From a virus: a stretch of 15,162 nt of DNA. This document shows positions 834-15,162 of the stretch, one piece after another. The translations under genes were made by a program, and so were the position numbers. The notes beneath the pieces were generated by a model. The model had not been told where the DNA came from. It ran no database searches and saw nothing but the letters and a program-made list of their open reading frames with translations. Within the stretch, counting starts at the first letter, position 1, and each line of letters starts with the position of its first letter. Location: UHGV virus genome UHGV-0253784, one strand, 5' to 3'.

Positions 834-1058
834 ATGTGTTTCAGTCCAAAGATTAGCACTCCGAAGCCTTCGGTCCAAGCACCTGAACCAGCACCTCTGA
901 GTGAGGAAGTTGCGTCAGTTGACATCGGGGCTGAATCTGATGTGGACACCAACGAGACCAAAGGTATCAAAGACCTGAAGGTCAAGAAGGAGTCTGCACC
1001 TAAAGATAAATCGTCAGTGAGTCGAGCTATGCGAGCCTCTGGCGTCAACATGGGGTAA
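834..1058 (+). CDS. gp6.7-like virion protein (74 aa)
   Basis: N-terminus MCFSPKISTPK matches the T7 gp6.7 N-terminus as I recall it (MCFSPKIKTP), and the EPAPL motif is shared. Shine-Dalgarno TAGGAGGG upstream. Confidence 0.8.
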   Translation: MCFSPKISTPKPSVQAPEPAPLSEEVASVDIGAESDVDTNETKGIKDLKVKKESAPKDKSSVSRAMRASGVNMG

Positions 1059-1062
1059 GACA

Positions 1063-1467
1063 ATGCTACCATATCTCAACTCACGCGAAGGTCGCCACAT
1101 GTGCGCCTGTCGCCTCTGGGAAGACGGGCAGTCTAACTTCAAGTCATTCGAGGACTTCAAGGCTCATACTTACCGTATGGCTGACGAGTTCGAGGGTGAA
1201 GAGTACACAATCTACGATGCCTCAGGTCAACCAGTAGCGTATCTCTACATGCTGGCTACCTCATCTTGGCACCGACCGACTCCCGGTCTTGACCTTTCAA
1301 TCGTCGCTATTCGTCGTGACTCGCAGTCCTCCCGCAAGGTTCTTGAGACTGTCAGACACATCATAGACGAAGAGTGCAAGCGTTGGGGTCTAGACTGGTA
1401 TTCTCGTGTCAAGCATGTTTCTGGGTCGGTAGACATCGTAACAACTAAGGAGATTAACCGTGGGTAA
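1063..1467 (+). CDS. gp7-like virion/host-range protein (134 aa)
   Basis: Size and position match T7 gene 7, between 6.7 and 7.3. Weak ribosome-binding site. Assignment by synteny only. Confidence 0.55.
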   Translation: MLPYLNSREGRHMCACRLWEDGQSNFKSFEDFKAHTYRMADEFEGEEYTIYDASGQPVAYLYMLATSSWHRPTPGLDLSIVAIRRDSQSSRKVLETVRHIIDEECKRWGLDWYSRVKHVSGSVDIVTTKEINRG

Positions 1468-1708
1468 ATCAATCAGTAAGGCTTTCAAGAAAGTGGTGAA
1501 AAGTACGTTAAGGACAGTGGGTCTTGGCTCTGACGATGCTCCTAAGGTTGTTGAGGCTCAGACCCCAGCAGCACCAGTGGAAGTACCGAACGACAAAGTG
1601 GAGGATGTGGATACTGAAACAACCGCATCTGACGAGAAGAAAGTGAAGCGTTCCGGTAAGCGTAGCCTTCAGGTCTCTCGTACCTCTGGTGGCGGTATTT
1701 CTATATGA
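1460..1708 (+). CDS. gp7.3-like tail/adsorption virion protein (82 aa, GTG start)
   Basis: GTG at 1460 with AAGGAG (1447-1452) 7 nt upstream. N-terminus MGKSISKAFKK and C-terminal SGGGISI resemble T7 gp7.3 (MGKKVKKAVKK ... SGGGINI, from memory). Overlaps gp7 by 8 nt. Confidence 0.75.
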   Translation: MGKSISKAFKKVVKSTLRTVGLGSDDAPKVVEAQTPAAPVEVPNDKVEDVDTETTASDEKKVKRSGKRSLQVSRTSGGGISI

Positions 1709-2121
1709 CCGGGTGCATCGAGTGGAAGTGGGCAAAATCCTCAGCAGGATACGGGCAGAAGCGTATAGACGGTAAGTTAGTGTATATGCACCTACTCGCT
1801 TACGCCGATGCGCATGGGCCAATACCAAACGGAATGCGCGTCCGTCATAAGTGTGATAATCCAGCATGTTTCAACGTAAACCACTTAGAGTTAGGAACTC
1901 AGCGTGATAACATGCAGGACGCCTCAAAGCGTGGTCGCATCAATAAAACCAAAATGGCTAGAGGTGAAGACCAAGGGTTATCGGTTTTAACAGAAGACCT
2001 TGTTCGAGAAATCCGCAAGTCAACTGTAGGTTGTACAACACTGGCTCGTGAGCTAGGCGTTAGCAAGTCTACAGTTTTGCGTGTTCGCCAAGGTAAAACA
2101 TGGAGGCACGTAGATGGCTGA
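1705..2121 (+). CDS. HNH-family homing-endonuclease-like protein (138 aa), at the T7 gene 7.7 position
   Basis: HNH motif HKCDNPACFNVNHLELGTQRDN followed by a helix-turn-helix-like tail. ATGA overlap with the gp7.3 stop and an 8-nt overlap with the portal start. Paralogous to ORF 12614..13063. Confidence 0.85.
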   Translation: MTGCIEWKWAKSSAGYGQKRIDGKLVYMHLLAYADAHGPIPNGMRVRHKCDNPACFNVNHLELGTQRDNMQDASKRGRINKTKMARGEDQGLSVLTEDLVREIRKSTVGCTTLARELGVSKSTVLRVRQGKTWRHVDG

Positions 2122-3682
2122 ACGTGAAGGATTTGCTGCTGAAGGCGCGAAGTCAGTTTATGATAGATTAAAGAACGGACGACAACCATATGAGACGCGC
2201 GCTCAGAACTGTGCTGCTGTCACTATCCCGTCACTGTTTCCTAAGGAGTCCGACAACTCGTCTACGGAATACGTGACGCCGTGGCAAGCTGTAGGTGCTC
2301 GCTGCTTGAACAACTTGGCTGCAAAACTGATGTTGGCGCTATTCCCTCAGTCACCGTGGATGCGACTTACAGTCTCAGAATACGAGGCAAAGACCTTGAG
2401 TCAGGACTCAGAGGCGGCTGCTCGTGTCGACGAAGGGCTGGCTATGGTCGAGCGTGTGTTGATGGCTTACATGGAGACTAACAGTTTCCGCGTCCCATTA
2501 TTCGAGGCGTTGAAGCAGCTTATCGTCTCCGGTAACTGTCTGCTCTACATTCCAGAGCCTGAACAGGGAACTTACAGTCCGATGCGTATGTACCGCTTAA
2601 CGTCCTACGTTGTTCAACGTGATGCTTTCGGTAACATCTTGCAGATTGTGACTCTCGACAAGGTAGCGTTTAGTGCTCTACCGGAAGACGTGAAGTCTCA
2701 ACTCAACGCAGACGACTATGATCCTGACACCGAGTTGGAAGTGTATACGCACATCTACCGTCAGGACGACGAGTATCTACGCTACGAGGAAGTGGAAGGC
2801 ATTGAGGTAACAGGGACCGATGGTTCTTACCCACTGACTGCCTGTCCGTACATCCCGGTACGAATGGTTCGACTGGATGGTGAAGACTATGGTCGTTCTT
2901 ACTGCGAGGAGTATCTTGGAGACCTTAACTCTCTGGAGACGATTACAGAAGCTATCACCAAAATGGCTAAGGTAGCCTCCAAGGTGGTGGGCCTCGTTAA
3001 CCCGAACGGTATCACGCAACCTCGTCGTCTGAACAAGGCGGCTACAGGTGAGTTTGTGGCTGGTCGCGTTGAGGACATCAACTTCCTGCAACTGACGAAA
3101 GGTCAGGACTTTACGATTGCCAAGTCGGTAGCTGATGCTATCGAGCAACGTTTAGGCTGGGCCTTCCTTCTTAATAGTGCTGTTCAGCGTAATGCCGAGC
3201 GAGTCACTGCTGAAGAGATTCGTTATGTTGCTGGCGAACTGGAGGCGACCTTAGGTGGCGTGTACTCAGTACAATCCCAAGAGCTTCAGTTACCTATCGT
3301 CCGTGTGCTGATGAACCAGCTTCAGTCTGCTGGCATGATTCCTGACCTTCCGAAAGAAGCGGTAGAGCCTACGGTCTCCACTGGTCTGGAAGCGTTAGGT
3401 CGTGGTCAAGACTTAGAGAAGCTAACTCAGGCAGTCAACATGATGACCGGGCTACAGCCTCTGCAACAGGACCCAGACATTAACTTGCCGACCCTGAAGC
3501 TGCGACTGCTGAATGCCTTAGGTATTGACACTGCTGGCTTGCTGCTGACCCAGGACGAGAAGTTGCAACGTATGGCTGAACAATCCGCTCAAGGAGCTGT
3601 GGTCAACGGTGCGTCTGCTGCTGGTGCTAACATGGGTGCTGCTGTAGGTCAGGGAGCTGGTGAAGACATGGCTCAAGCCTAA
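2114..3682 (+). CDS. Portal (head-to-tail connector) protein, gp8-like (522 aa)
   Basis: Long blocks match T7 gp8 as I recall it (AKSVYxRLKNxRxPYETRAQNC, DAFGNxLQxVT, RYVAxELExTLGGVYS). Shine-Dalgarno GGAGG 7 nt upstream of the ATG. Confidence 0.95.
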   Translation: MAEREGFAAEGAKSVYDRLKNGRQPYETRAQNCAAVTIPSLFPKESDNSSTEYVTPWQAVGARCLNNLAAKLMLALFPQSPWMRLTVSEYEAKTLSQDSEAAARVDEGLAMVERVLMAYMETNSFRVPLFEALKQLIVSGNCLLYIPEPEQGTYSPMRMYRLTSYVVQRDAFGNILQIVTLDKVAFSALPEDVKSQLNADDYDPDTELEVYTHIYRQDDEYLRYEEVEGIEVTGTDGSYPLTACPYIPVRMVRLDGEDYGRSYCEEYLGDLNSLETITEAITKMAKVASKVVGLVNPNGITQPRRLNKAATGEFVAGRVEDINFLQLTKGQDFTIAKSVADAIEQRLGWAFLLNSAVQRNAERVTAEEIRYVAGELEATLGGVYSVQSQELQLPIVRVLMNQLQSAGMIPDLPKEAVEPTVSTGLEALGRGQDLEKLTQAVNMMTGLQPLQQDPDINLPTLKLRLLNALGIDTAGLLLTQDEKLQRMAEQSAQGAVVNGASAAGANMGAAVGQGAGEDMAQA

Positions 3683-6037: not shown

Positions 6038-6604
6038 ATGGCTCAATACATTCCACTGAATGCTAACGATGACTTAGACGCCATCAACGATATGTTAGCT
6101 GCTATAGGTGAACCAGCAGTCCTACAGCTTGACGAGGGGAACGCTGACGTCTCGAACGCTCAACGTATCCTGCATCGTGTCAATCGTCAGGTCCAAGCTA
6201 AAGGCTGGAACTTTAACATCAACGAAGCTGCTGTCCTGACACCTGATATCCAAGACAATAGGATTCGATTCTTGCCATCATACCTTCGTGTAATGACCGC
6301 TGGGGCCACCAGCTACTACAGCAATATGGGTGGATACCTGTACGACCTATCCACTCAGTCAACCACTTTCACCGACCCTATCACGGTAGAGCTTGTGGAG
6401 ATGAAGCCATTCTCCGAGATGCCTGTGGTCTTCAGGGACTACATCGTCACTAAAGCTAGCCGTGAGTTCAACGCTAAGTTCTTCGGTAGCCCAGAGTCAG
6501 AGCTATACCTTCGTGAGCAGGAAGCAGAACTCTATCAGCAAGTTATGGAATACGAGATGGACACTGGTCGCTACAACATGATGTCTGACATTGGGAGGGA
6601 CTAA
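6038..6604 (+). CDS. Tail tubular protein A, gp11-like (188 aa)
   Basis: Matches T7 gp11 as recalled (AIGEPxV, NAxRIL, GWxFNI, YIVTKASRxFN, MEYEMD). Shine-Dalgarno GAGAGGAGA upstream. Confidence 0.95.
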   Translation: MAQYIPLNANDDLDAINDMLAAIGEPAVLQLDEGNADVSNAQRILHRVNRQVQAKGWNFNINEAAVLTPDIQDNRIRFLPSYLRVMTAGATSYYSNMGGYLYDLSTQSTTFTDPITVELVEMKPFSEMPVVFRDYIVTKASREFNAKFFGSPESELYLREQEAELYQQVMEYEMDTGRYNMMSDIGRD

Positions 6605-6831
6605 TGGCTAGTCACAACCTGAAGATTCACCGCCAGCACTTTGGTCCGGTACAGCTAGGTCTAAAGACAGCAGAGCTGAGACTTAACGACCGGGACTTTA
6701 AGGTTGGCGATTGGCTTATCCTGAATGAGTGGGACAACGGATACACTGGACAACAGGTAGCTCGTAAGGTTGTCCACATTGCTGACGTTGGTGACATCGC
6801 TGAAGGATACGTCCTAATGAGTATGATTTAA
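6604..6831 (+). CDS. Small DUF3850/ASCH-like (PUA-fold) protein (75 aa), inserted between the tail tubular genes
   Basis: TAATG stop-start overlap with gp11 and GGGAGGGA upstream. The pattern HNLKIHxxHFGPVxLGLKTAELRLNDRDFKVGDWLILNEW ... EGYVL fits the DUF3850 signature as I remember it. T7 has no gene here. Confidence 0.7.
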   Translation: MASHNLKIHRQHFGPVQLGLKTAELRLNDRDFKVGDWLILNEWDNGYTGQQVARKVVHIADVGDIAEGYVLMSMI

Positions 6832-10328: not shown

Positions 10329-12611
10329 ATGGCTAGTAATATTGAATCAGCTCTGGCTAATCGGACTATGGGTCGTGGAAGAGCGCCGGGTAAAGCTATC
10401 GCCGTAAACTATCAAGCAGCAAGCGTTCAGGCTCCGACTGGTGACTCCGGTCTAGCTCGTGCGCTAACCAACTTCGTTGAGTCTGGGACAGGATTGTACA
10501 AGCAGTTCAAGGACGAGGAGAAGACCAGAGCTGACGAGAGGTCTAACGAGATTATCCGTAAGCTGACACCTCAGCAAAGACGTGAGGCTATCCAGAACGG
10601 CACATTGCTGTATCAGGACGACCCTTACGCTATGGAAGCGCTTCGAGTCAAGACTGGTCGTAATGCTGCCTTTGCGGTGGATGACGAGATTAACGTTAAG
10701 ATTCAGAACGGTGAGTTCCGCACACGTCAGGACATGGAAGAGTATCGCCACCAGCGACTTCAGGACGCCGCTAAGTCCTATGCTGAAGAGGCAGGTATTA
10801 ACCCTACAGATGAGTTCTTCCAGCGCGGGTTCAACGATAACATCACAGACCGCAACATAGCTATCTATGGGTCTTTCAATAAGTATTTCAGCAAGCAGTC
10901 TGAAGAGACAGCAATGTTGAACACTCGTATTGAAATGAACTCGTTCCTTAACGATGGGGACCTGATGCGCTCGCCTGAGTCTGGAAAGACCTTCATGGCC
11001 TACCTTCGGGATGGACTAACGACTGCTGCTATCCCTTCGGACCAGCGAGCACGAGAGGTCATCACCCAGACGGTACGTGACGCAATCCAGAAGTCAGGAG
11101 GCTCAAACTTCCTACAGCAAGTCCGTGGCGAGCGTATCACCCTTAATGGCGTTGACGCTACCATCGAAGAGATTGTAGGACCTGACGTCTTCAATGCCGC
11201 TATGGTTGAGGCCCAAGGTACTGAGTATAAACTGGTGGCTAAGTATCAGGAAGACTTGGCGTTAGGAGTTCAGTCTGCAATTCTTCAAGATGACCCAACC
11301 ATTGGTCTTGCCCAGATTCAGAAACTCAAGGAGCAGAACAACCTGCTTCAGCCTGGTGAAGAACTAACGCCTCAGCGTCAGATGCTCATTAATGCCGAAG
11401 CCAGCTTACTGGAAGCGGTAAAGCGTAAGTCTGCTGAACAGGCGAAGGAGAACAAGAAGTTAATCCAGACCCAGAACAAGCAACTGGTCATAGACCAAGT
11501 GTATCAGCGACGTCTGGCTGGGGACAACGTGTCCACCAACTATGAGGACCTTCCGGTCTCATACGCTACAGGCGAGTTCAAACGTTCGGACATGAACAAC
11601 TATGCGGCTGCCAAGCTGCAGCAGATTGACCAGATGGACATCCCTGAGGCTGCTAAAGATGCTCAGAAGGTTGCACTGTTAAGAGCTGACACTAACAACG
11701 GTCCGTTCCGTAATGCCTTCCAGACTCTTACTCAGGATGCTGCTGGTGAGTGGCAGGCTGCGGTCATCCGTGGACAGTACGACACAGACAAGATGCAACG
11801 CTTCGAGTCTCTTCGTCGTGCCTACACTCAGGACCCTTCAAGTTTTGCTGCTCTGTATCCTGACCAAGCTCAGTTGTTCTCTACGTTCGACCAGATGGAC
11901 AAGATGGGTCTGGACCCTCAGACGATGATTGAAGCTGATAAGCAAGCTGCAAGTCAAAGCCGTGAGATGCGCATGGAGTCAGACAAGGCGTGGCAGGAGT
12001 TGAAGAACGACTCTAAGAACACCCAGCTGTCTCGCCTCCCAACGTCTCTGGACTCAAGTGCTCGTAAGGTCTGGGACTCATGGTACTATCGTACAGGTAA
12101 CGCTGACGCTGCAACTCAGCAGACTCAACGCTGGCTGAATGAGAACACCGTAACGTTCCAGTCTGAAGGTTCTGACGGTAAGTCAATCGGCATGGTGTCG
12201 AAGCACCAGCTTATGGTCGGGGATAACCCAGAGTCGTGGCAGGTGGGTCGAGACATTATAGACACCGCTCGTCAGCAGCTCATTAAGGCCAACCCTTGGG
12301 TAGTGAACTCTCAGTTGTCCGTTGTTGAACAGAACGGCTCTATCTTCCTCCAAGACGCTACGGGGACTATTCGTATTCGATACGATAAAGAACTTGTAGG
12401 TAAACTCTACCGCGAACAACAGCAGAAGGCACAAGATGCCGCATATGCTCAGGCAGAACGTGATGCTAACAAGCGCGCGCGTATCGTCGGGACTAAAGCT
12501 GCTGGTGACAAACGTCGAGCTGACCGAGAGGCCAACATCGAGAAGCGCGGTGGGATGTACAATGACGTCTCACTGGAGGGTATCGCAAACGTACTAATCG
12601 GTAAGGAGTAA
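10329..12611 (+). CDS. Internal virion protein C, gp15-like (760 aa)
   Basis: Strong match to T7 gp15 as recalled (IESAL, ADERSNEIIRKLTPxQRREA, NGTLLYQDDPYAMEALRVKTGRNAA, EEYRH). GAGGAGGA upstream. Confidence 0.95.
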   Translation: MASNIESALANRTMGRGRAPGKAIAVNYQAASVQAPTGDSGLARALTNFVESGTGLYKQFKDEEKTRADERSNEIIRKLTPQQRREAIQNGTLLYQDDPYAMEALRVKTGRNAAFAVDDEINVKIQNGEFRTRQDMEEYRHQRLQDAAKSYAEEAGINPTDEFFQRGFNDNITDRNIAIYGSFNKYFSKQSEETAMLNTRIEMNSFLNDGDLMRSPESGKTFMAYLRDGLTTAAIPSDQRAREVITQTVRDAIQKSGGSNFLQQVRGERITLNGVDATIEEIVGPDVFNAAMVEAQGTEYKLVAKYQEDLALGVQSAILQDDPTIGLAQIQKLKEQNNLLQPGEELTPQRQMLINAEASLLEAVKRKSAEQAKENKKLIQTQNKQLVIDQVYQRRLAGDNVSTNYEDLPVSYATGEFKRSDMNNYAAAKLQQIDQMDIPEAAKDAQKVALLRADTNNGPFRNAFQTLTQDAAGEWQAAVIRGQYDTDKMQRFESLRRAYTQDPSSFAALYPDQAQLFSTFDQMDKMGLDPQTMIEADKQAASQSREMRMESDKAWQELKNDSKNTQLSRLPTSLDSSARKVWDSWYYRTGNADAATQQTQRWLNENTVTFQSEGSDGKSIGMVSKHQLMVGDNPESWQVGRDIIDTARQQLIKANPWVVNSQLSVVEQNGSIFLQDATGTIRIRYDKELVGKLYREQQQKAQDAAYAQAERDANKRARIVGTKAAGDKRRADREANIEKRGGMYNDVSLEGIANVLIGKE

Positions 12612-12613
12612 AC

Positions 12614-13063
12614 ATGAAGAACGGGACAGCCAGTGAGAGACTGGCAGAACTGTCAGTAGCTGAAGAGTCTGGCTGTATCCGATTCACAGGCCACTTAGAC
12701 GGAGAAGGATACGGAAGGATAATGGTAGCTAGGGTTAAGTATATGGCACATCGTCTCTCCTACTCCCTAAATAATGGGCCAATACCAGATGGTTATGTTG
12801 TTAGGCATAAATGTGATAACCCATCATGCATAAATCCTGAACACCTTGAAGTAGGAACGCAGGCTGACAACATTGCAGATAAGGTTTCCAGAGGCCGACA
12901 GGCAAGAGGTAGTGGAGTAGGCAGAGCTATACTGACAGAGGAATCTGTTAGAGAAATACGCTCCAGCCCATTAAAAGTATCTGAGCTTTCCACCTTATAC
13001 GGGGTAAGCGTCGTTTCCATACGAAATATATTAAGGAGAAAGACATGGCAACACGTGGTGTAA
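12614..13063 (+). CDS. HNH-family homing-endonuclease-like protein (149 aa), inserted between genes 15 and 16
   Basis: HNH motif HKCDNPSCINPEHLEVGTQADN and a helix-turn-helix-like tail; paralogue of ORF 1705..2121. Visibly enriched in AGA, AGG and ATA codons compared with the neighbouring structural genes. Overlaps the gp16 start by 19 nt. Confidence 0.85.
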   Translation: MKNGTASERLAELSVAEESGCIRFTGHLDGEGYGRIMVARVKYMAHRLSYSLNNGPIPDGYVVRHKCDNPSCINPEHLEVGTQADNIADKVSRGRQARGSGVGRAILTEESVREIRSSPLKVSELSTLYGVSVVSIRNILRRKTWQHVV

Positions 13064-15162
13064 GGAATGCAAATCCGGGCAATATCCGTAAGTCCAAAGA
13101 CCAGTGGGAAGGTGCTATAGGCGATGATGGTGCATTCGTTATCTTCGACAGTCCTGAATCTGGGGTCCGAGCATTAGCGAAAAACCTTCAAAGCTACGGT
13201 CGCCAAGGTTATGACTCTATCGAGAAGATTATCAACCGATGGGCACCTCCTAACGAGAACGACACTAAGTCCTACATCGACTCGGTGGTGGCTGCGACTG
13301 GCATCCCTGCTACCCAGAGTCTAGACCTCTCTGACCCGGACACCCTGTCTTCTCTGGCACAAGCTATCAGCTTCCATGAGACAGGCTCCCGGTACGACCC
13401 TGAAGTCTACCAACAGGGAGTCGCAAGAGCACTCAACGGTATCAGCCCAAAGACTCCACCAGTAAGCGCTAACGTATTTGACGCACTCACGGAAGGACTC
13501 AAGTCTAAACCTAAAGTAGCTCTTGGTGAGAACCTTCCGACCGCTGCTGGTCTGAACATTGAGGGTCAAGCACCTGAAGCTCCTAACGAATCGTTCGGTG
13601 AGATGTTCTATAAGGCTACTGGAGAGACCATGCAGGAGCGAGAGGATCGCTCTACGTGGTTCGGTTTCGGTTCTGCTGCAGAAGCTGAAGTGAAGAACTC
13701 TATGGTCGGCGTGGCTATCCGAGCTGGCCAGACTGAGGACTCACTGGATGTCATTGGCGATGTGTTCAACCCAACCCGATGGAACAACCATAAGTGGTCT
13801 CGTGAGGAGCTTGACCAGATTCGTAACGCTGGGGTTCTGCCTCAGTATTACGGAGTCATTACTGGTGGCTCCCCTCAGAACCTGACCGAGCTTATTAACT
13901 TGGCGCTTGAGAACCAGAAGTTGGACCAAGAGAAGGCCAAGGCTGGGACTGGCGCTCAACTGGCGGCTGGTGTGATTGGTGCTGGCGTGGACCCTCTGAC
14001 TTACGTTCCTATTGCTGGGCAGGTAGGTAAAGGTGGGAAGCTAGTCAACAAGATGTTCACTGTGGCTGCTCAGTCTGGTGCTCTGGCTGGGGCATCAGAG
14101 ATTGCTCGAACCTCAGTTGCTGGTGGGGACGCTCATGTGGCTGAGGCAATTATGGGCGGTGCTCTCTTCGGCGGGGGAATGACAGCTATCGGGGACGCTA
14201 TCGGTAAGGCCTTAGGCAAGTCAACCAACGAGTTCGCTGGGCCAGCCACACGTCTGGAAGCCCGTGAGACTGCACGTAATGTTGATGGTCATGATCTGTC
14301 GCGTATGCCAATCCGTGAAGGAGAGGAGACCTTTAGTCACCAAGGCGTTAAGTTCGCTGACGTGCCGAATGAGCCGGGTAGTGTACGATTAGAAGATGGT
14401 TCAATCCTGATTGGTGAGAACCCTCTGAACCCTAAGACACGTAAAGTCTTTGACGAAGTGATTGAGCCTGAACGTGCCGCTGCTGGTGTGAACCTTGGTG
14501 GGCTGACTGAGATTGGCCTGAAGCTGCTTCGGTCCGAGAACCCTGAGATTCGTGGAGTCGCTGCTGACTTAGTGCGTTCACCAACTGGTATGCAGTCCGG
14601 TGCCTCAGGTAAAATCGGGACCACTGCGTCAGACGTATTCGAGAGACTTCGTGCTGTGGACCATCGGTTCTACAACGACATCGACGATGCGGTTACTGAG
14701 GCACTCAAGGATCCGTACTTCCAGACAGCATTCTGGCGAGACTCTGGCGCATTCCGTCAGGACATCTACCAGCGTGTGTCTATGGCTATCGAAGATGGTA
14801 GTGGGAACCTGAAGGCTGAACTGACTCCGGGAGAACTGAAAGTCTATGACCTACTGAAGAACCAGTTCGACGCCAAGCGTGAGATGATGGAGAACCCAGC
14901 GATGTTTGGTCGTCCAGACGCTCAGTCTATCTTTCCGGGTAGCCGCTTCAAGGGAACCTACGTCCCGCATGTGTATAGCAAACAGATGAAGGAGCTGTAC
15001 ATCAAGGAGCTTGGAAGTCCAGAGGCACTACAGGAGGCCATCAAGAAGTCATGGTTGACCAGCTATGCGTCTCGACATGAGGTCAAGAAACGTGTGGACG
15101 AGGCACTATTAGAGGCTGACCCTACGTTGACTCCAGAAGGACTTGCGGCTGCGGTCGATAAG
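13045..15162 (+). CDS. Internal virion protein D, gp16-like, 3' truncated by the window edge (706 codons present)
   Basis: ATG 13045 with AAGGAG 6 nt upstream. Frame open to the last base of the window. From about residue 200 it matches T7 gp16 as recalled (STWFGF, PTRWN, GAGVDPLTYVP, RLEARETARN, LVRSPTGMQSGASGK, ENPAMFG, KGTYVPHVY). The N-terminal ~120 aa do not resemble the T7 gp16 transglycosylase module. Confidence 0.9.
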   Translation, partial: MATRGVRNANPGNIRKSKDQWEGAIGDDGAFVIFDSPESGVRALAKNLQSYGRQGYDSIEKIINRWAPPNENDTKSYIDSVVAATGIPATQSLDLSDPDTLSSLAQAISFHETGSRYDPEVYQQGVARALNGISPKTPPVSANVFDALTEGLKSKPKVALGENLPTAAGLNIEGQAPEAPNESFGEMFYKATGETMQEREDRSTWFGFGSAAEAEVKNSMVGVAIRAGQTEDSLDVIGDVFNPTRWNNHKWSREELDQIRNAGVLPQYYGVITGGSPQNLTELINLALENQKLDQEKAKAGTGAQLAAGVIGAGVDPLTYVPIAGQVGKGGKLVNKMFTVAAQSGALAGASEIARTSVAGGDAHVAEAIMGGALFGGGMTAIGDAIGKALGKSTNEFAGPATRLEARETARNVDGHDLSRMPIREGEETFSHQGVKFADVPNEPGSVRLEDGSILIGENPLNPKTRKVFDEVIEPERAAAGVNLGGLTEIGLKLLRSENPEIRGVAADLVRSPTGMQSGASGKIGTTASDVFERLRAVDHRFYNDIDDAVTEALKDPYFQTAFWRDSGAFRQDIYQRVSMAIEDGSGNLKAELTPGELKVYDLLKNQFDAKREMMENPAMFGRPDAQSIFPGSRFKGTYVPHVYSKQMKELYIKELGSPEALQEAIKKSWLTSYASRHEVKKRVDEALLEADPTLTPEGLAAAVDK

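Follow-up and report, generated by a model that had tools for sequence, protein, structure and literature searches.

The window (the whole stretch of DNA that was analysed, 15,162 nt) carries the structural-gene block of a K1F-like relative of T7 in the genus Kayfunavirus. When 2.5 kb around the HNH gene considered here was used as a query, 221 phage records were matched at up to 96% identity, with Kayfunavirus PDP21P1, Salmonella phage ST20 and Escherichia phage SD6 as the best matches. In T7 no gene lies between genes 15 and 16, as a preliminary description of this DNA had stated; the gap there measures 26 nt. In the window, an open reading frame for an HNH endonuclease is wedged between the two genes, a placement already proposed in that description and confirmed by the ORF itself and by its annotated flanks (Table 1).

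Table 1. Coordinates of the features at and around the gene 15/16 junction, with the evidence for each.
Feature	Position in window	Strand	Evidence
Paralogous HNH_3 gene, 138 aa, at the T7 gene 7.7 position	1705..2121	+	ORF list, Pfam, comparison with T7
Gene 15, internal virion protein C, 760 aa	10329..12611	+	ORF list; annotated homologues in K1F and CR44b; PF26212 Phage_T7_Gp15 on identical neighbours
TAAGGAG Shine-Dalgarno within the end of gene 15	12602..12608	+	Sequence; empty-site junctions of 24 loci; direct repeat D3
HNH endonuclease ORF, ATG start, 149 aa	12614..13063	+	ORF list, Pfam, PHROG
431-nt segment missing from empty-site relatives, from the HNH ATG to the base preceding the gene 16 ATG	12614..13044	+	Comparison of occupied and empty junctions
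HNH_3 (His-Me finger) catalytic domain, residues 43-86	12740..12871	+	Pfam; invariant columns; Foldseek
C-terminal three-helix module, residues 109-140, putative helix-turn-helix DNA-binding domain	12938..13033	+	AF2 model; HTH feature in CR44b 7.7C
Second TAAGGAG, from HNH codons L140-R141-R142 (TTA AGG AGA), 6 nt 5' of the gene 16 ATG	13032..13038	+	Sequence; 9/10 direct repeat; GAGGAG in other alleles
19-nt overlap of gene 16 codons 1-7 with HNH codons T144 (third base)-W-Q-H-V-V-stop	13045..13063	+	Sequence; HNH+ versus empty loci
First ~149 nt of gene 16, deeply divergent allele inherited with the HNH gene; co-conversion or candidate immunity tract	13045..13193	+	Identity, pS, near-isogenic pairs
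Gene 16, internal virion protein D with N-terminal peptidoglycan-hydrolase domain; cut by the end of the window	13045..15162	+	Annotated homologues

Gene 15 closes with the codons GGT AAG GAG TAA, which contain a Shine-Dalgarno sequence and whose stop occupies 12609-12611. Two bases (AC) then lie between this stop and the HNH ATG, where a distance of 3 nt had previously been given. The accompanying claim that the ORF runs into the start of gene 16 was sound: the HNH stop codon (TAA, 13061-13063) lies beyond the gene 16 ATG at 13045, an overlap of 19 nt, and the identical gene 16 start and overlap are annotated in seven relatives (CR44b, ST20, CHRF_10022, U8, PH1061, ZH4 and Ro103C3lw). The second HNH gene of the window overlaps the portal ATG (2114) by 8 nt and its product is 44% identical to that of the 15/16 junction; its position is that of T7 gene 7.7, annotated as an HNH endonuclease, which directly precedes gene 8. 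A search of the whole window at Rfam gathering thresholds returned no group I intron nor any other Rfam family, so the HNH gene has no group I intron context; its place at the gene 15/16 junction puts it outside any intron or intein. Between 12300 and 13400, no sigma-70 promoters or intrinsic terminators were found above shuffled expectation, in a scan that does not cover T7-type phage promoters.

By sequence, the 149-aa protein is a member of the HNH, or His-Me finger, nuclease family. Pfam HNH_3 (PF13392, curated cutoff 24.8 bits) matches it with E=6.1e-15 and 55 bits over nearly the whole profile, and PHROG HNH endonuclease families match it down to 9e-35, so that its first identification as an HNH endonuclease withstood an HMM search. 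Nine residues (C21, H65, C67, D68, C72, H77, N86, D89 and R95) are invariant in a 50-sequence alignment of the protein with 49 homologues at 42-82% identity. An AlphaFold2 model built on this alignment (pLDDT 92.9) predicts N-terminal strands, a beta-beta-alpha core as expected of a beta-beta-alpha-metal fold (strands 62-65 and 78-81, then a helix at 83-92) and three C-terminal helices (109-117, 122-129 and 133-140). The solved structure returned first by Foldseek is I-HmuI of Bacillus phage SPO1 (1U3E; E=1e-3, probability 1.0, 146 columns), followed by I-PpoI. As modelled, the protein has the modular build of I-HmuI, with the same order of N-terminal beta strands, catalytic HNH domain and C-terminal helix-turn-helix, although the two share only 14% identity, the TM-score is low (0.38) and the relationship is undetectable by sequence. 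Searched by sequence, the protein matched no PDB entry at E<=1 and no NCBIfam family. I-HmuI is an intron-encoded nickase, whereas the 15/16-junction enzyme is free-standing, in a window where a group I intron was not found. The C-terminal module is the part of the protein that diverges most among alleles (pN 0.26-0.44 there).

The gene is distributed sporadically. By tblastn, the HNH protein was recovered at 56-99% amino acid identity in 24 records, representing 21 phages and all at the gene 15/16 junction; carriers there include CR44b, ST20, CHRF_10022, SD6, PH1061, U8, ZH4, EFA-1, EPr2, GA2A, Ro45lw and Pipis. The remaining tblastn matches fall below 50% identity and are paralogues at other sites in many Autographiviridae. 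With some 230 records containing this gene 16 region, carriers amount to about 1 in 10 phages, and 3 of 24 loci in IMG/VR are occupied. The identical HNH protein was read on 24 metagenome contigs (the index gives 56 blocks), and at all six of the places inspected on such contigs it lies between gp15 and gp16. Neighbour-joining trees of gene 15 and of gene 16 (nt 400-1500) place carriers scattered among non-carriers in both major clades. Carriage by all close relatives, which would have spoken against an acquired gene, is thus not the case: most have an intact empty site, and the gene displays the pattern of presence and absence at an intact site by which free-standing homing endonuclease genes are recognised.

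Alignment of relatives across the junction, as recommended at the outset, delivered both the empty site and an insert of 431 nt, which lies exactly at the point where an empty genome begins gene 16. The empty site occurs in K1F and 23 other related loci; empty junctions were read directly in these 24 loci of the aligned set and in HC13, Esher7 and pO91. Most of them run ...GGTAAGGAG TAA CATA ATG GCG ACT CGT GGT ATT CGC..., with the spacer TAATAACA in a second clade, and occupied junctions run ...GGTAAGGAG TAA AC ATG AAG AAC ... TTA AGG AGA AAG AC ATG GCA ACA CGT GGT GTA AGG.... All 14 occupied loci examined share the 431-nt insert, the 149-aa ORF and the 19-nt overlap with gene 16. The boundaries of the insert were set by tblastn anchors and direct reading, MAFFT having misplaced the gap in a three-way alignment of the junction.

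Insertion at this point rearranges the start signals of gene 16. Phages with an empty site have a single Shine-Dalgarno sequence for gene 16, the TAAGGAG at the very end of gene 15, with a spacer of 7-8 nt; in the window this motif now sits 5 nt before the HNH ATG. The HNH codons L-R-R-K-T-W (TTA AGG AGA AAG ACA TGG) provide gene 16 with a TAAGGAG, a 6-nt spacer and an ATG, the latter formed from the Thr and Trp codons (ACA TGG). A repeat finder reports the two copies as a 9/10 direct repeat (TAAGGAGTAA and TAAGGAGAAA, 430 nt apart), and other HNH alleles have GAGGAG in place of the second TAAGGAG. The segment TTAAGGAGAAAGACATGG at 13031-13048 reads L140 R R K T W145; the preliminary description had correctly located the gp16 Shine-Dalgarno and ATG in these codons, but they are not the last of the ORF, since four more (Q H V V) precede the stop. 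Because TAAGGAG is duplicated and the ATG lies inside HNH codons, the takeover of gene 16 start signals is directly visible in the sequence. That translation of gene 16 in fact depends on the embedded Shine-Dalgarno, the stronger form in which the takeover had been claimed, we infer from this replacement. For a hairpin sequestering the ribosome-binding site, like those of T4 endonucleases, there was no evidence in RNA-folding z-scores of -1.4 at the HNH site, -0.2 at the gene 16 site and -0.5 at the empty junction of K1F.

To read the element as a clean insert between two genes, as was done at first, is too narrow: it includes gene 16 codons 1-7 and the next ~130 nt. Over its final 19 nt the HNH frame coincides with gene 16 codons 1-7, which are not the same in carriers as in non-carriers. 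Position 9 of gene 16 is A in all 13 distinct HNH+ loci aligned and in none of the 24 empty loci, this A being the middle base of the His codon in the conserved C-terminal T-W-x-H-V motif of the HNH family; positions 17-19 are TAA or TGA, the HNH stop, in the same 13 loci. Among the 24 empty loci of the alignment, 22 have ACT CGT GGT ATT CGC. The divergence continues downstream of the overlap and is one-sided. Compared with the closest empty relatives, the last few hundred nucleotides of gene 15 are 96-100% identical, while gene 16 is ~70% identical over its first 100 nt, ~86% over nt 100-300 and 92-97% thereafter, a weaker divergence extending to about nt 267 (13311). Proportional synonymous divergence (pS) reaches 0.72-0.79 in gene 16 nt 22-150, against 0.15-0.19 in gene 15 and 0.10-0.16 in gene 16 nt 301-900, and non-synonymous divergence is some tenfold higher in the tract. 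One value was disregarded: the pN of 0.63 between Ro103C3lw and the IMG/VR locus L016 in gene 16 nt 301-900 is an indel artefact of ungapped comparison.

Two near-isogenic pairs fix the edge of the tract. In gene 15, just 3 of 2400 nt distinguish CHRF_10022 (HNH+) from CHRF_10037 (empty), two phages of Dhaka sewage, but within gene 16 nt 1-149 they differ at 48 positions. Ro103C3lw (HNH+) and its empty IMG/VR relative L016 differ at 54 of these 149 nt and, beyond nt 149, by a single difference as far as gene 16 nt 672; in both pairs, near identity returns abruptly after the 149-nt tract. These differences indicate that the mobile unit comprises the HNH gene and gene 16 up to about nt 150, which are inherited as one cassette, with a linkage that is not absolute. 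SD6 has the window's HNH allele and another tract after gene 16 nt ~50, PH1061 has the window's tract and another HNH allele, and in pO91 the tract type switches near gene 16 nt 65. In HC13 and Esher7 the junction is empty, but gene 16 begins with ATGGCAACACGTGGTGTAAGG, which includes the base of the HNH His codon and the stop codon; this start may be what HNH loss left behind, or else the allele that received the first insertion. Deletion between ACATG or TAAGGAG repeats was considered as a source of HC13, and the junctions that it predicts are not an exact match to the TAATAATA spacer of that phage. A flanking tract like those left by co-conversion, expected of homing, is present (gene 16 nt 1-149, ~30% divergent), with incomplete linkage in HC13, pO91 and SD6. 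Such a flank pattern could also come from a mosaic module exchanged by ordinary homologous recombination, with no drive by the endonuclease.

The codon usage of the gene is as unlike that of its neighbours as first described, with AGA, AGG and ATA all frequent. Its Arg codons are AGR or CGN in a ratio of 10/5, against 29/179 in the structural genes (Fisher p=1.4e-5), and its Ile codons ATA or ATY in a ratio of 7/2, against 9/182 (p=1.7e-7). GC3, at 0.389, lies under all 255 structural-gene windows of 149 codons (mean 0.53, sd 0.044, minimum 0.416), and the CAI of 0.506 under a structural-window minimum of 0.631. What does not hold is the conclusion once drawn from this usage, that the gene is a recent acquisition. 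All 14 alleles examined, which span down to 56% amino acid identity, are rich in AGA and AGG, which make up 6-11 of their 12-18 Arg codons, and ATA is abundant in most of them. Between allele groups dS exceeds 1.6 and is saturated, and the flanks of the same genomes are ~95-97% identical; dN/dS is 0.04-0.21 in the 12 comparisons, out of 13, that had an estimable dS (GA2A is saturated), as under purifying selection. Since alleles at such distances are all AGR-rich, the bias is a stable family trait and not a fading trace. A stable codon bias of this kind, in a long-resident family under selection, is common among homing endonuclease genes. It is the near-isogenic HNH+/HNH- pairs, and not codon usage, that point to a real recent gain or loss of the gene in some lineages.

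We accordingly consider it very improbable that the gene was recently imported from a foreign genome of different composition. Such an import would account for values of GC3 (0.39) and CAI (0.51) beyond the range of all structural-gene windows and would sit well with the very recent gain or loss in some lineages. It is opposed, however, by the maintenance without decay of AGR-rich and mostly ATA-rich usage in alleles at dS>1.6, by the ordinary codon usage of the linked gene 16 tract (GC3 0.52) and by the location of all relatives of at least 56% identity at the same site in the same phage group; the embedded Shine-Dalgarno moreover forces 2 of the 10 AGR codons.

The earlier proposal that the gene is an intron-less homing insert, by contrast, draws support from the empty sites, the sporadic and interspersed distribution and the conversion-like flanking tract. 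In our estimate the gene at the 15/16 junction is, with a probability of about 0.75, a free-standing HNH homing endonuclease cassette that spreads by intron-less homing. The HNH gene would be co-transcribed with late genes 13-16 on the late polycistronic message, and in mixed infections its product would nick or cut alleles that lack the gene, at or close to the 15/16 junction or the 5' end of gene 16. The damage would be repaired with the HNH+ genome as template, so that the HNH gene and the adjoining gene 16 tract are copied in together. The HNH+ genome itself would be immune, its target destroyed by the insertion and by the numerous substitutions within gene 16 nt 1-149. With the start signals of an essential gene embedded in the HNH gene, an imprecise deletion would probably be lethal, which would help the element to persist. 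Cleavage, target, immunity and drive are all parts of this scheme that we infer from sequence comparison.

The same cassette might instead be a passive mosaic module, its HNH protein no longer active in homing, gained and lost only by general homologous recombination between co-infecting phages. Mosaicism is pronounced in Kayfunavirus genomes, where gene 16 nt 900-1300 is one example of an independent patch, and the allele of the HNH gene is not strictly linked to that of the flanking tract. Within the HNH gene, the first 50-100 nt and the last ~50 nt are near-identical across allele groups around a core of ~70% identity, which suggests that HNH cores have been exchanged between conserved 5' and 3' ends. 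We nonetheless find passive inheritance unlikely: a dN/dS of 0.04-0.2 with invariant catalytic and zinc-ligand-like residues argues for a functional protein, the ORF is 149 aa long in 14 of 14 loci, and a sharp, one-sided tract at the insertion site is typical of break repair.

Strong purifying selection across deep divergence could also mean that the nuclease has been domesticated and is retained for a benefit to the phage (exclusion of competitors, degradation of host DNA or an aid to packaging) rather than as a purely selfish element. The strong, well-spaced Shine-Dalgarno of the HNH gene, with no hairpin to sequester it, is compatible with such a role, and terminase cofactors exist among the HNH proteins of phages (cited in PMC8861465). 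Carriage by only ~10% of otherwise near-identical phages, among them near-isogenic HNH-free phages that are viable isolates, makes domestication distinctly unlikely, and exclusion of competitors would in any case be the same mechanism as homing. T7-like phages package from direct terminal repeats, and no need for an HNH packaging cofactor is known in them. A terminase-associated packaging factor like HK97 gp74, the gene for which would adjoin the terminase/portal packaging module of a cos-type phage, was considered and rejected, the present gene lying between genes 15 and 16, away from the terminase genes, and being dispensable in ~90% of relatives.

An extension of the homing reading, which we regard as doubtful, would turn the HNH gene, together with gene 16 up to nt ~150, into an endonuclease/immunity cassette whose parts co-evolve and which comes in several allelic specificities. 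Cassettes would then compete with empty sites, whether naive or resistant (of the HC13 type), and this competition would drive the unusual hypervariability at the N-terminus of gp16. Strict pairing of HNH allele and gene 16 tract, sought as a sign of co-evolving specificity and immunity, is absent among the loci compared, being broken in PH1061, SD6 and ZH4, so that the tract is not proven to be an immunity determinant. If the extension were true, cassette competition would decide which internal-virion module wins in mixed infections, and the placement of the gene 16 Shine-Dalgarno and ATG inside HNH codons would guard the element against deletion.

Sporadic HNH homing endonuclease genes are known in T7-like phages, and the gene at the 15/16 junction is an ordinary element of a known kind; more than 20 deposited genomes have it annotated at this junction. 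It is not new: it was already in GenBank at the same site, for example as 7.7C of Citrobacter phage CR44b, a 'predicted homing endonuclease', the other labels in use for 15/16 orthologues being 'HNH endonuclease', given in several genomes deposited after CR44b, and 'hypothetical protein'. In the literature found, there is no experimental characterisation or discussion of HNH genes at this junction. CR44b 7.7C and the Kayfunavirus orthologues share with the window the site, the 149-aa length and the 19-nt overlap with gene 16, at 56-99% amino acid identity; the HNH proteins of ST20 and CHRF_10022 are 98-99% identical to the window's. The SD6/ST20-type allele of the window differs from CR44b 7.7C more deeply (86% protein and ~74% DNA identity), the first 100 nt being identical and the rest about 70%. 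What is added here is the exact anatomy of the element, namely the 431-nt insert, the duplicated Shine-Dalgarno, the 19-nt overlap, the linked gene 16 tract of ~150 nt and the deep allelic diversity.

With sharply defined cassette edges and near-isogenic isolates or relatives (CHRF_10022/CHRF_10037, and Ro103C3lw with its IMG/VR relative), the junction offers a clean natural system, convenient for measuring homing, co-conversion and marker exclusion in podophages of E. coli and Salmonella of the type used in therapy. It also carries a caution for phage engineering, as careless deletion of an 'accessory' HNH ORF would strip gene 16 of its ribosome-binding site and start context.

Comparable designs occur both within T7-like phages and beyond them. 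T7 gene 7.7 and the window's paralogue at 1705..2121 belong to the same HNH_3 family, are of similar size, share the C-terminal K-T-W-x-H-V motif and likewise abut or overlap the start of an essential downstream gene, that of the portal. They differ in insertion site, the window's paralogue is only 44% identical, and codon usage in the 7.7-type gene is nearer to that of the host phage (CAI 0.59, against 0.51 for the 15/16 HNH gene). Intron-less homing, co-conversion of flanks and overlap or coupling with neighbouring genes have been reviewed for the seg and mob genes of T4 (PMC2988022), and the mechanism proposed here agrees with that framework and with a sister case in Hafnia phage Ca. T4 mobE, mobA, segF and segG (HNH and GIY-YIG) are likewise intergenic, overlap or are coupled to their neighbours, co-convert their flanks and spread sporadically (PMC2988022), but they belong to another phage family and to other protein subfamilies. 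The free-standing endonucleases of T4 often cleave hundreds of base pairs from their own genes, whereas here the strongly divergent tract adjoins the insert; unlike them, the 15/16 HNH gene encodes the downstream Shine-Dalgarno and ATG inside its own codons. Alike in design is an HNH homing endonuclease gene of Hafnia phage Ca, also a Kayfunavirus, which lies upstream of the gene for the terminase large subunit and whose stop is situated past the terminase ATG (PMC8861465). Genus and overlap design are those seen here, at another site (the junction of lysis gene and terminase) and with another paralogue. In stocks of phage Ca, a spontaneous variant with a 397-bp deletion of the endonuclease gene co-exists (PMC8861465).

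The HNH gene between genes 15 and 16 is itself a mosaic when set against its counterpart in the related phage CR44b (window 12614-12800 versus 1515-1700 of locus L002), its first ~100 nt being 100% identical to those of CR44b and U8 and its last ~50 nt holding 85-97% identity, while the core reaches only 46-74%. Because near-identical ends enclose so divergent a core, the alignment points to an exchange of HNH allele cores between conserved ends. Upstream, metagenome contigs that encode the identical HNH protein are of two kinds, with 2 nt or 5 nt separating the stop codon of gene 15 from the HNH start codon (L042 and L045 versus L043, L044, L046 and L047 at positions 2495-2501, with ST20 and CHRF_10022 also compared); thus, the left junction varies even inside one allele.

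In pO91 (L040, 1174-1430), gene 16 opens with the naive sequence of an empty site, as found in K1F, and from nt ~65 continues as the HNH-linked tract, the divergent ~150-nt start of gene 16 that is inherited with the HNH gene. As the sequence changes from one type to the other near nt 65, a recombination breakpoint within the tract is indicated. The 15/16 junctions of HC13 (L038, 1170-1310) and Esher7 (L039, 1170-1310) are empty, with the spacer TAATAATA, and gene 16 in both opens with the HNH-type ATGGCAACACGTGGTGTAAGG and also possesses the linked ~150-nt tract. Such a start either was left behind when the HNH was lost or represents the pre-insertion allele, and these junctions would be candidate empty sites resistant to cleavage. 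A second mosaic patch lies further into gene 16 (nt ~900-1300), where identity to relatives is 67-86%, the same relatives being 92-99% identical on either side; its occurrence is independent of HNH status.

The first HNH gene, whose 3' end shares 8 nt with the start of the portal gene (ATG at 2114), also varies in presence and absence among related records. Only 36 of 221 such records cover window 900-2900 to at least 80% in a single piece, and ~400 nt are absent at this site in K1F, ST20 and most other relatives. With a CAI of 0.59, the gene is nearer to the phage's own codon usage than is the 15/16 copy. Elsewhere, T7 has only a 23-nt gap between genes 11 and 12, whereas the window has a 75-aa ORF adjoining the gene 11 stop, which may be a further accessory insertion.

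First HNH gene, possible accessory ORF and second gene 16 patch in the window
Feature	Window position	Location	Size	Domains
First HNH gene	1705-2121	T7 gene 7.7 position	138 aa	
Possible accessory ORF	6604-6831	between tail tubular genes 11 and 12	75 aa	DUF3850/ASCH (E=2e-19)
Second mosaic patch	~13950-14350	gene 16		

Both HNH genes occur in GenBank MT350292.1 (hits H10, H49 and H206). This genome is typical of Kayfunavirus, and its record bears the name 'Enterococcus phage EFA-1' and gives Enterococcus faecalis as the host. Such a host is implausible for a member of this enterobacterial phage group, and the entry possibly reflects a labelling or contamination issue.
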